Part shown: positions 41,817-45,966 of the stretch, in pieces
Layout of the letters: every line of letters starts with the position of its first letter
Position numbering within the stretch: position 1 is the stretch's first letter
Source of the DNA: Escherichia coli
Lineage (GTDB): Bacteria > Pseudomonadota > Gammaproteobacteria > Enterobacterales > Enterobacteriaceae
Reading direction: 5' to 3' (one strand)
DNA length: 64,000 nucleotides
Assembly (NCBI RefSeq): GCF_003334355.1
Contig: NZ_QOWP01000002.1
The notes under the pieces: model-generated
The model's input: only the letters and a program-made list of their open reading frames with translations
What the model was told of the DNA's origin: nothing
Databases searched by the model: none
Translations under genes and position numbers: made by a program

Positions 41817-42260
41817 TTAGCGTTGACGATTAGCGATACTGTTCGTTTCCGGGTTCATACGCTCGCGGCGTGAACGCGCGGGCGTCCAGTCCAGCGCGCC
41901 AATACGCACCAGATAAACCAGACCTGCCAGTAACACAAAAATAAAAATTGCAGCTTCCACAAAGCCTACCCAGCCGCTTTCGCGGATAGAGGTTGACCAT
42001 GCGAACAGATACAGCGCTTCAACGTCGAAGATAACGAAGAACATGGCCACCAGATAAAACTTGGCGGACAGGCGTAAGCGGGCGGAGCCGACCGAGTCGA
42101 TACCGGATTCAAACGGCACGTTTTTCGACCTCGCGCGTGCGCGACCGCCTAAAAACCAACCGCCTACCAGCATCAGGCAACACAGGCCAATGGCAACGAT
42201 AAGAAAGATAGCGAATGCCCAGTGATGAGCGATGACTTCAGTGGATGTTGACATACTCAT
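41817..42260 (-). CDS. nuoA: NADH:quinone oxidoreductase subunit A
   Basis: 147 aa, 3 TM helices; first gene of the operon. Confidence 0.95.
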
Positions 42261-42890
42261 TGCTTACTCATCAAAAGTAGCGCCAGATTCACTGCTCTTC
42301 ACGGCAGATGGACGCCACATCGATTCATGGGGAGGAATAAAAAAAACCTTACAATCACTGTAGAAATTCTTTTATACAGCTAATTGATGTGGTCTTTTAC
42401 TCCTTTCTATAACCTTTTGTCAACTTTAACAAAAGTTTCTTCACATTAGTTTACATAATATCAACACCATTAGCATTTAATGCCCTTTCACCCCAGATCC
42501 TTGACGACTCCAGGATAATTAGATGTTGTTGAATCGTGTCCGTTGTGAAGCAATGGAAAAAATACGGGTCTATTTTGACAGGAATTTGTGTCGATTCCTC
42601 CCCCCAAAAGAGAGTATTTTCTTGATCTGTGACACGCTTTTGTCATTCCATAACAAAAACGCAGCAACAAATTTACGTATTTTTTAACATCATTGTAGCA
42701 GGTGATTTTTTTCAGGCGATTATTTGTGCGTTCGGGACGTGAATCTCTGGTGATTGAAAAATGAACAGCTTTGTGCGTTCTGCACTATGCGAGGAAGGAT
42801 TTTTACTAAAAAAAAGCCGCTGGGGTTTAAAACACCCCCAGCGGCTCGTTTTTTACACTATTGTCTCAGGAATTATCTATCGTCCGTCGA
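42261..42890 (-). promoter_or_regulatory. nuo operon promoter/leader region (long AT-rich upstream region)
   Basis: 630-nt non-coding AT-rich gap between lrhA and nuoA; no credible ORF; individual sites not resolved by eye. Confidence 0.5.
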
Positions 42891-43832
<942 letters not shown>

Positions 43833-44748
43833 TTATCACTTACTGGCGGCTCATACTGAGCTGGTTAATGCTGTGCACACACAAACAAGCAATTCCATTT
43901 GTAATGTGCCTCCCTGGCAGTTTCATCCGGAACCCGGACGAAAGTAAAAATGCATATGAGTTGCACTAAAAAAGCGACTCACATTGTTCCGTTATAATGC
44001 CTGAAGTAGATCACAGAATATATCTTCAGGGATCGCATATCTATTAAGTTACTCACTCTTTTCTATTTATGACATGCGCGTGTTTGTATAAATGTAAATG
44101 TGAGTCCTTGTTCCACTCTCGTGCAGCATCGCTGGTCATACGCGAACACGTACAAACAGCAATGGTGAGGCGGCATCAAGAGCAGGGATCCGTCATTTAT
44201 GCGAGCATTTTACCCCAAAAACCTTTTATTTATAAGGGTCATTGCGAATTATCTGATGCAAAGTTATGTTATGTTAGGCAAAGTAATCTTCTATTATTAA
44301 TAAGCACATCAAAACCTTTTTGAATATTAAATAATAATTAATTAGCATCATCCTCATTCATTAATTCCGCTTAACAATAGTTTCACACCTTGCCCCCATT
44401 ACGACACCTCGGAAATCATCACGCTGTTAAACTCTCCGTAATGCGGAAATATCATCATCGCGTTTCATTAGTGAATTCTTAAATGAGGCATTTTCACACA
44501 ATTATCTTACAGATAAAAAAACCAGACTTACAATTAAGAATCAGAACAATTCACTATATAACATTGCATGTAAAGCATATACACCTCATTATTTTGTCAT
44601 TATTAAGTTATTAACAGCACAATCGAGCCTTCCCCTCTGGCAAAATCTTATTCTGCAGACCTTCAAAACACCGTCCTGGGGGAGTACATTGTTCTAAGCT
44701 GACTTCCACGGCAGGGAGTGGCGATAACAGCAAAAAAGGTCAAGATTC

Positions 44749-45966
44749 ATGTCCCCCATTGAAAAATCCAGCAAATTAGAGAATGTCTGTTATGACATCC
44801 GTGGTCCGGTGCTGAAAGAAGCAAAACGCCTGGAAGAAGAAGGTAACAAGGTACTGAAACTGAACATCGGCAACCCAGCCCCGTTCGGTTTTGACGCGCC
44901 AGATGAAATCCTCGTTGACGTGATACGCAACCTGCCTACCGCTCAAGGGTATTGCGATTCCAAAGGTCTTTACTCCGCGCGTAAAGCCATCATGCAGCAC
45001 TACCAGGCTCGTGGCATGCGTGATGTTACCGTGGAAGATATTTACATCGGCAATGGTGTATCGGAGCTTATCGTTCAGGCAATGCAGGCATTGCTGAACA
45101 GCGGGGACGAAATGTTGGTTCCTGCACCAGATTACCCACTATGGACCGCGGCGGTTTCGCTTTCCAGCGGTAAAGCGGTGCATTATCTTTGCGATGAATC
45201 CTCTGACTGGTTCCCGGACCTCGATGATATTCGCGCTAAAATTACGCCTCGTACGCGTGGGATCGTTATTATCAACCCAAATAACCCAACCGGCGCGGTA
45301 TATTCCAAAGAGCTTTTAATGGAGATTGTGGAGATTGCACGTCAGCATAATCTCATTATCTTCGCCGATGAAATTTATGACAAAATTCTCTACGACGACG
45401 CTGAGCATCACTCAATTGCACCGCTGGCACCTGACCTGCTGACCATTACCTTTAACGGACTGTCGAAAACGTACCGCGTTGCAGGCTTCCGTCAGGGGTG
45501 GATGGTGTTGAACGGGCCGAAAAAACACGCCAAAGGCTACATTGAAGGTCTGGAAATGCTGGCTTCAATGCGCCTGTGTGCTAACGTTCCTGCGCAACAC
45601 GCCATTCAGACCGCGCTAGGTGGTTATCAGAGCATCAGTGAATTTATTACCCCTGGCGGTCGTCTTTATGAGCAGCGTAACCGCGCGTGGGAACTGATCA
45701 ACGATATTCCGGGCGTTTCCTGCGTGAAACCTCGTGGTGCGCTGTATATGTTCCCGAAAATCGACGCCAAACGCTTTAACATTCACGACGATCAGAAAAT
45801 GGTGCTGGATTTCCTGTTGCAGGAAAAAGTTCTGTTGGTGCAAGGGACGGCATTCAACTGGCCGTGGCCGGATCACTTCCGCATTGTCACGCTACCGCGT
45901 GTCGATGATATCGAGCTGTCTTTGAGCAAGTTCGCGCGTTTCCTTTCTGGTTATCATCAGCTGTAA
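44749..45966 (+). CDS. alaA: Glutamate-pyruvate aminotransferase (class I PLP aminotransferase)
   Basis: 405 aa; aminotransferase class I fold with PLP-lysine region NGLSKTYRVAGFRQG. Confidence 0.9.
   Translation: MSPIEKSSKLENVCYDIRGPVLKEAKRLEEEGNKVLKLNIGNPAPFGFDAPDEILVDVIRNLPTAQGYCDSKGLYSARKAIMQHYQARGMRDVTVEDIYIGNGVSELIVQAMQALLNSGDEMLVPAPDYPLWTAAVSLSSGKAVHYLCDESSDWFPDLDDIRAKITPRTRGIVIINPNNPTGAVYSKELLMEIVEIARQHNLIIFADEIYDKILYDDAEHHSIAPLAPDLLTITFNGLSKTYRVAGFRQGWMVLNGPKKHAKGYIEGLEMLASMRLCANVPAQHAIQTALGGYQSISEFITPGGRLYEQRNRAWELINDIPGVSCVKPRGALYMFPKIDAKRFNIHDDQKMVLDFLLQEKVLLVQGTAFNWPWPDHFRIVTLPRVDDIELSLSKFARFLSGYHQL

Follow-up and report, generated by a model that had tools for sequence, protein, structure and literature searches.

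We analysed the intergenic region between lrhA and nuoA in Escherichia coli (assembly GCF_003334355.1, contig NZ_QOWP01000002.1), within a stretch of 64,000 nucleotides that we call the window and to whose positions all coordinates refer. The two genes are separated by a gap of exactly 630 nt (42261-42890):

41817-42260, minus strand: nuoA, the downstream neighbour of the gap in the direction of nuo transcription
42891-43829, minus strand: lrhA, the upstream neighbour, on the same strand as nuoA

The GC content ranges from 0.355 to 0.425 within the gap, against 0.50-0.58 in the flanking genes. These boundaries and values bear out the description given in an earlier note on this DNA, made from the sequence alone, of an AT-rich gap of 630 nt between lrhA and nuoA. 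The results presented below make it very probable that this gap is the cis-regulatory region of the nuoA-N operon, which encodes NADH dehydrogenase I.

The gap sequence is that of E. coli, with 100% identity to strain B379 and a single copy in 5424 of 5426 complete genomes. The genome of K-12 MG1655 contains a gap of equal length (630 bp, at 2405073-2405702) with no annotated feature inside, and only five of the 630 positions differ between the two sequences. For comparison among species, an LrhA query yielded 80 species-representative loci, 74 of them with both genes, to which the window was added, giving 75. The order lrhA-gap-nuoA is kept in all 75 of these Enterobacteriaceae loci, and the length of the gap lies between 614 and 645 nt in 71 of them. 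Where positions in the intergenic region (IGR) are quoted, they correspond to 42891 minus the window coordinate, so that 1 is the first base past the lrhA stop and 630 the base before the nuoA ATG; this numbering runs in the direction of nuo transcription, that is, along the minus strand.

Transcription of nuo is initiated within the gap, at the following sites:

42394-42423, minus strand: main sigma-70 promoter, with the -35 hexamer TTGACA at 42418-42423, an 18-nt spacer and the -10 hexamer TAAAAG at 42394-42399
42388 and 42385, minus strand: transcription starts, both at an A, giving 5' untranslated regions (5' UTRs) of 128 and 125 nt

The -35 hexamer agrees with the consensus at six of six positions and the -10 hexamer at four of six, its final T being absent; the latter reads TAAAAG here and TAAAAA in K-12. 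The promoter block is invariant across the 75 species. Systematic evolution of ligands by exponential enrichment (SELEX) with the RpoD holoenzyme revealed a constitutive promoter, TTGACA-18-TAAAAA, in the nuoA-lrhA spacer (Shimada et al. 2014; PMC3946193). Moreover, transcription start site sequencing (TSS-seq) of MG1655 produced 4218 reads at 42388 and 1744 at 42385 (Kim et al. 2012; PMC3415461), and both mapped starts lie downstream of TTGACA-18-TAAAAG. The expectation that the gap must hold the nuo promoters is therefore only partly supported: TSS-seq and SELEX place a promoter there, but a single one carries all the TSS-seq signal assigned to nuoA.

Other starts have been used in the literature. 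The site numbering of Park et al. (2013; PMC3798270) implies starts at IGR 368 and ~541 (42523 and ~42350), and Chareyre et al. (2019; PMC6497325) built their RyhB reporter with a forward primer that begins exactly at IGR 368, 135 nt before the mapped start. Neither 42523 nor ~42350 is present in the TSS-seq table for nuoA, and the supplements of a single-molecule real-time (SMRT) Cappable-seq study and a Klebsiella start-site table contain nothing for nuoA or lrhA. A minor 3' end in the nuo sense was mapped at 42485 (31,207 reads in LB at an optical density of 0.4), ~100 nt upstream of the main start and beside the conserved palindrome GCATTAAATGC; it points to a short transcript made upstream of that start.

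We consider it unlikely that nuo is substantially driven by extra promoters or by read-through from lrhA, with the starts at 42523 and ~42350 being real and LrhA controlling the region. Such promoters are favoured by the fact that Park et al. (2013) used the two further starts, as did Chareyre et al. (2019) when designing their fusion, and by the sense 3' end at 42485, which sits between 42523 and the main start. However, TSS-seq gives only 42388 and 42385 for nuoA, and no reasonable -10 and -35 hexamers were found ahead of 42523. The start at ~42350 adjoins the foot of the first hairpin of the nuoA leader (hairpin 1, described below), where a reverse-transcriptase stop or processing would be expected; as it lies 2 nt 3' of that foot, it could be either of these.

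The read-through part of this explanation depends on what separates lrhA from the nuo promoter:

42806-42855, minus strand: lrhA intrinsic terminator, made up of an A tract, a 12-bp GC-rich stem and U8
42692-42794, no strand assigned: poorly conserved spacer, from the conservation profile of the 75 species

The terminator folds with a free energy (dG) of -30.7 kcal/mol and a z score of -3.7, none of 200 shuffled sequences being equally stable, and it was also recovered in our list of inverted repeats as I2. A hairpin followed by a T run is found at a constant distance from the lrhA stop (T run from ~IGR 80) in 67 of the 75 species, and the sequences of the stem vary from species to species, which indicates that the structure is kept and not the sequence. 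The terminator looks bidirectional. What speaks for read-through is that 3'-end sequencing (Term-seq) of K-12 gave no 3' end in the U tract (42806-42813) on either strand; the lrhA 3' end in these data lies at ~42860, ~5 nt upstream of the hairpin. It is possible that ends in the U tract were missed through poor capture of a recessed, A/U-paired end, or were removed by processing. Against read-through stands a terminator that is both strong and conserved in position. Because nuo also has strong start sites of its own, read-through is not needed for its expression and is probably minor at most. The proposal in the earlier note that transcription might continue from lrhA into nuo thus receives little support.

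In the few species whose gap is long, the extra length comes from insertions, among them an enterobacterial repetitive intergenic consensus (ERIC)-like element, an inverted-repeat element like a miniature inverted-repeat transposable element (MITE), and 68-nt tandem repeats. All these insertions lie between the lrhA stop and its terminator, never further downstream.

The same note had presented lrhA as the regulator of nuo. Inactivation of lrhA reportedly caused no significant change in nuo expression, and the gene is said to owe its name, 'LysR homologue A', to its position. The targets of LrhA in the literature that we read are flhDC, type 1 fimbriae (fim) and rpoS; nuo is not among them, and the accessible literature describes no effect of LrhA on nuo, so this part of the claim was not sustained. 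Control by LrhA would fit the synteny of lrhA and nuo, which extends over Enterobacteriaceae, Yersiniaceae, Erwiniaceae and Pectobacteriaceae. The arrangement is old. Klebsiella, Yersinia, Serratia, Dickeya, Pectobacterium, Erwinia and Mixta all have it, but Leminorella does not; in Serratia, it has been noted in the literature on PigU.

Upstream of the main promoter, the alignment of the 75 species revealed six invariant blocks with unconserved DNA between them. These blocks, and the elements that overlap them, are, in the direction of nuo transcription:

42680-42691: block ATGTTAAAAAA, invariant
42647-42689, minus strand: distal ArcA region (nuoA2 of Park et al. 2013), with TGTTA-type direct repeats, occupancy by chromatin immunoprecipitation sequencing (ChIP-seq) and the predicted box TGTTAAAAAATACGTAAATTTGTTGCTGCGTTTTTGTTATGGA
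42528-42648, minus strand: distal module of invariant blocks with fixed spacing
42611-42648: block TTAACAAAAGCGTGTCWCAGATCAAGAAAATAC, in which TGAC replaces TTAAC in E. coli
42595-42616: block TACYYCY...GGGGGAGGAAT, a C/G inverted repeat that resembles NarL heptamers
42570-42585: block ATCCTGTCAAAATAG, invariant
42528-42543: block ACGGACACGATTCAAC, invariant
42437-42467, minus strand: proximal ArcA region (nuoA1), with three direct repeats, ChIP-seq occupancy and the box GTGTTGATATTATGTAAACTAATGTGAAGAA
42386-42455: continuous conserved block that includes the promoter
42414-42435, no strand assigned: 22-bp palindrome CTTTTGTTAA-AG-TTGACAAAAG, inverted repeat I5, lying over the -35 hexamer

The distances from block to block are 61 nt (70 of 75 species), 24 nt (73 of 73), 21 nt (73 of 73), 40 nt (57 of 75) and 118 nt (57 of 75, and between 117 and 119 nt in 71). 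The last interval is constant although ~55 nt of it are unconserved, and the ATGTTAAAAA block is 264 +/- 1 nt away from the -35 block in 69 of the 75 species. Such fixed spacing may reflect helical phasing in a multi-protein complex assembled on bent or looped DNA.

Two regions of the gap were occupied by ArcA in ChIP-seq experiments, and an arcA mutant derepresses nuo 2.7-fold (Park et al. 2013; PMC3798270). Published data thus provide, for this operator, occupancy in vivo, TGTTA-type repeats at ~11-bp phasing and derepression in the mutant. The distal region includes the invariant ATGTTAAAAAA, which extends to 42691, and conservation of the repeat cores extends over genera as well as over E. 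coli alleles. A divergent allele of the gap, with 90-95% identity, is carried by 1043 E. coli genomes. In one example, 13 of its 37 differences cluster at IGR 401-457 (42434-42490), around the proximal ArcA region; the differences alter the spacers between the ArcA direct repeats and leave the repeat cores unchanged.

A consensus scan also detected a CpxR-like box, GTAAA-N5-GTGAA, at 42440-42454, with one mismatch and a conservation of 0.88, overlapping the proximal ArcA region. According to the Raivio laboratory, the nuo promoter region has CpxR sites and is directly repressed (PMC8831704), and regulation of nuo by NarL and Fnr is cited in PMC1805755. With two ArcA regions by ChIP-seq, stated CpxR sites and cited NarL/Fnr regulation, the prediction that the gap holds sites for multiple regulators is supported. 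Consensus scans of the gap for IHF, FNR, CRP and Fis gave nothing specific; the remaining blocks are probably sites of the NarL, IHF/Fis and CpxR types.

The 22-bp palindrome has the form CTTTTGT(T/C)AA-AG-TTGACAAAAG, is invariant in the 75 species and is perfect in Yersinia, Serratia, Erwinia and Mixta. We could assign no known binding protein to it. A third copy of its half-site, TTRACAAAAG, is found at 42637-42646, 223 bp upstream of the palindrome. In most species, the C/G inverted repeat at 42599-42615 can be folded into a small hairpin. We nevertheless rejected it as an RNA hairpin, given that its arms fit NarL-type heptamers (TACYYMT / AKRRGTA-like), that no covering transcript is known and that no 3' end on the plus strand was mapped there; it reads as a predicted protein site.

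Downstream of the transcription starts, the nuoA leader consists of the following elements:

42352-42386, minus strand: leader hairpin 1, 5'-proximal, dG -7.8 kcal/mol, z score -2.5
42326-42351, minus strand: single-stranded linker, U8 followed by AUUCCUCCCC (42329-42338)
42270-42324, minus strand: leader hairpin 2, terminator-like, with the core stem at 42277-42318 and the U tract at 42273-42276
42246-42272, minus strand: nuoA ribosome-binding region and start codons (ATG at 42258-42260 and at 42252-42254), the RyhB pairing site

Hairpin 1 starts 3 nt from the 5' end; it has 11 pairs, and in an alignment of 69 sequences seven of them have changed on both sides in a compensatory manner. The linker is unpaired in the centroid fold; its sequence hardly varies within Enterobacteriaceae, and in Yersinia, Serratia, Dickeya and Mixta it is rich in pyrimidines (AUCCUUCCC). 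Hairpin 2 (dG -19.1 kcal/mol, z score -2.4) is followed by UUUUGAU. RNAalifold predicted it with 12 pairs, and in the alignment of the 69 sequences 98% of the cells of its outer helix and 100% of those of its inner helix are paired. Three pairs of hairpin 2 are compensated, with GC<->AU exchanges in 16 sequences and CG<->UA exchanges in 13. For both hairpins together, 88.7% of cells are paired, compared with 52% at most when the partners are slid, and the covariation score is 0.267 against 0.191 in shuffled alignments, none of 500 shuffles reaching the observed value.

A covariance model built on the leader detected it in four families of Enterobacterales, in each case where it was expected (Klebsiella, Yersinia, Serratia, Erwinia, Mixta, Pectobacterium and Dickeya, with E values from 1e-14 to 6e-10), but not in Leminorella, and the leader was its sole match in the window. 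Rfam gave no match to the leader even at E<=1, its only, weak matches falling on the lrhA terminator, and a full-text search of the literature retrieved no described nuoA leader or 5' UTR RNA.

The Term-seq data of Adams et al. (2021, eLife; PMC7815308) place 3' ends at 2405086 and 2405082, which correspond to 42274 and 42270, 14 and 10 nt before the ATG, with 282,730, 475,924 and 124,622 reads in three conditions. These ends have a Rho score of 0.82 ('No') and an intrinsic-terminator score of 11.56, the threshold being 3 (PMC7815308). Hairpin 2 therefore combines a stable stem, a U tract, Rho-independent ends a few nucleotides past the stem and compensatory changes, as expected of an intrinsic terminator. 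We give about even chances to its being a true terminator and not an exonuclease stop; in the former case, it would act as a partial transcription attenuator.

It is also possible, although we do not favour it, that the role of hairpin 2 lies in stability or processing and that the 3' ends are decay intermediates trimmed by 3' exonucleases, for instance after the action of RyhB and RNase E. The U tract has just four U's, the two close 3' ends (42274 and 42270) resemble trimming, RyhB pairs immediately downstream, where it is the proposed trigger of degradation, and strong termination would be costly for an operon that needs high expression. On the other hand, the terminator score is 11.56 against a threshold of 3, and the site is not Rho-dependent. 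Likewise, the end at 42270 is 7 nt past the base of the stem, the usual distance for intrinsic termination, and nearly all genera have a U-rich run after the stem.

If transcription does terminate at hairpin 2, the resulting leader of ~115-119 nt might itself act in trans as a small RNA (sRNA) derived from the 5' UTR, with the CU-rich AUUCCUCCCC, which is anti-Shine-Dalgarno-like, pairing with other ribosome-binding sites, or it might sponge an sRNA. This seems quite improbable to us. Its layout resembles that of small RNAs of the Hfq type, in which a 5' hairpin, a conserved unpaired stretch rich in U and CU, and a terminator hairpin ending in a U tail follow one another; the read counts at its 3' ends are high, and Hfq affects nuo levels in Serratia. 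However, the putative sRNA is suggested by this layout alone, the linker is merely pyrimidine-rich outside Enterobacteriaceae, with no fixed seed, and functions in cis can explain all the conservation. It is conceivable, though less likely than not, that the leader is a distinct and undescribed RNA element, conserved in at least four families of Enterobacterales, which would set the synthesis of complex I by regulated premature termination, by release of an sRNA of ~115-119 nt, or by both.

Several additional pairings were evaluated, and none gained support. For an antiterminator formed by CCACATCAATT and AATCGATGTGG (an 11-nt complement including CCACAUC/GAUGUGG), most of the complement precedes the start, and A/C changes in it are not matched by compensating ones. 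A helix between the linker and the ribosome-binding site is compatible with pairing, but its 86% of paired cells are no improvement on the 85% in shuffles. In the long-range pairing of GGGGAGGAAT with ATTCCTCCCC of the leader, GGGGAGGAAT is situated upstream of the main start. These two sequences, at 42594-42603 and 42329-42338, form a perfect 10-nt complement 255 nt apart, and both are invariant across genera; the chance expectation for a 10-mer complement in 630 nt is ~0.2, by a rough estimate, and invariant copies bar a covariation test. TGAATCG and CGATTCA are likewise duplicated, at IGR 564-570 and 355-361.

The leader ends at the translation start of nuoA, where pairing of RyhB with the ribosome-binding site and the start codon was tested by compensatory mutations (PMC6497325). 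In this region UUUUGAUGAGUAAGCA is conserved across four families. Transcripts of nuo are increased in an hfq mutant of Serratia and decreased in an rsmA mutant. In Dickeya, Pectobacterium, Erwinia, Mixta and Serratia, AAG, GAG or TAG stands in place of the annotated ATG of nuoA (42258-42260). An in-frame ATG that lies two codons further on (42252-42254) is found universally and may therefore be the real start of nuoA. In Yersinia, the annotated NuoA has 163-166 amino acids and begins within the leader, probably through a mis-called start.

The conserved blocks could in principle reflect an unannotated gene for a small protein, either of 54 amino acids on the plus strand (42523-42687) or of 60 amino acids on the minus strand (42488-42670), but we regard this as extremely improbable. 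The start and the stop of the 54-codon open reading frame (ORF) do coincide with the outermost conserved blocks, and AGGA is found 7 nt before its ATG. However, it is broken by stops or frameshifts in 72 of the 74 other species, and the breaks fall between the conserved blocks; the 60-codon ORF is open and in frame in only one of the 74, and none of the E. coli records listed among the matches has an annotation there. The same applies to all five ORFs in or entering the gap, each of which is open and in frame in 10 of the 74 species at most (60 amino acids, 1; 54, 2; 37, 0; 72, 2; 43, 10). All five were rejected as small proteins by this test of frame conservation, and the statement that the gap has no credible ORF proved correct. 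Leader peptides were discarded as well: neither the 9-codon nor the 18-codon leader ORF has a Shine-Dalgarno sequence, the latter has a stop at codon 2 in Enterobacter, and the stop of the former is not conserved.

The gap upstream of lrhA (43830-44749) is larger, with 920 nt, and more AT-rich, the GC content falling to 0.30-0.35 at 44200-44700. Published TSS-seq gives lrhA a 5' UTR of 371 nt, inside which Term-seq places 3' ends at ~43879 and 44115-44121 (converted coordinates).

Some of our results weigh against the gap being the nuo control region in the form proposed here, with one main promoter and an attenuating leader. The main promoter, with a -10 hexamer that does not end in the usual T, was missed by a simple promoter scan, and the older annotation has its two other starts at 42523 and ~42350. 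The 3' end at 42485 shows that some transcription takes place upstream of the main start; a weak upstream promoter, slight read-through or more than one promoter may account for it. ArcA is the only factor that accessible data place on a specific block. As for the leader, Term-seq cannot separate termination from exonuclease trimming to a stable hairpin, the U tract of hairpin 2 is short (UUUU) and weaker in some genera, and our search brought up no alternative antiterminator pairing backed by covariation.

Boundaries, starts, ArcA occupancy, 3' ends, RyhB pairing, conservation, spacing and covariation come from the data presented here or cited. Upon them, we suggest the following model for the region, read in the direction of nuo transcription. 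The 3' end of lrhA and its intrinsic terminator would separate the two transcription units and be followed by ~100 bp of unconstrained spacer. Next would come a control region of ~300 bp in which invariant protein-binding blocks are held at fixed distances, comprising the two ArcA regions and probably sites for NarL, IHF/Fis and CpxR. This rigidly spaced upstream complex would set the output of the single main sigma-70 promoter, TTGACA-18-TAAAAG, with its starts at 42388 and 42385. In the structured leader of 128 nt, the 5' hairpin probably protects the end of the mRNA and is followed by the pyrimidine-rich, single-stranded linker. Some polymerases would then terminate at hairpin 2 and its U tract, 10-14 nt before the ATG, giving rise to the abundant RNA of ~115-119 nt, whereas the transcripts that read through would be translated from a weak ribosome-binding site, which RyhB and Hfq can block.

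Control of nuo by ArcA, NarL, FNR, IHF, Fis, CpxR and RyhB is textbook-level knowledge, to which the region as such adds little. The agreement between genome-wide start data and deep conservation on a single main promoter, which differs from the starts used for numbering and for fusions, has a practical consequence: site positions quoted relative to the nuo start need to be rechecked. The leader element, if confirmed, would mean that an operon so far seen as governed by its promoter and by RyhB is also controlled after initiation. If read-through at hairpin 2 is regulated, it would constitute a further control point for the largest respiratory complex of the cell, and a regulated leader would also bear on the uptake of aminoglycosides, which depends on the proton motive force.

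Long AT-rich intergenic regions with several ArcA regions are likewise known from cydAB, sdhCDAB, cyoABCDE and ndh, in which control by ArcA, FNR, IHF/Fis, Cpx and small RNAs is similarly combined. The conservation of block spacing to +/-1 bp over ~265 bp in 75 species is a figure for nuo alone.

The 5' UTR of ompA carries a 5'-terminal stem-loop that stabilises a long-lived mRNA. Hairpin 1, only 3 nt away from the 5' end and maintained through compensatory changes, bears a likeness to stem-loops of this type and may by analogy act in the same way. The hairpin, U tract and 3' ends of the nuoA leader are included in the tables of 5' UTR terminators and premature 3' ends of Adams et al. (2021), where the nuoA entry has no 'characterized regulatory element' label and nuo is absent from the main text. 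The nuoA leader differs from the catalogued 5' UTR terminators in having no evident ligand, leader peptide or antiterminator.

The closest known system is the control region of nuoA-N in E. coli K-12 (Bongaerts et al. 1995; Wackwitz et al. 1999; Park et al. 2013), which is the same locus and shows no difference in kind. The published picture shares with ours the two ArcA regions, control by NarL, FNR, IHF, Fis and CpxR, and the upstream lrhA; the difference from its annotation is that genome-wide starts disagree with the two older start sites. As a regulatory region, therefore, the gap is already known, and its leader is a modest lead of a familiar kind, that of 5' UTR attenuators and 5' UTR-derived RNAs.

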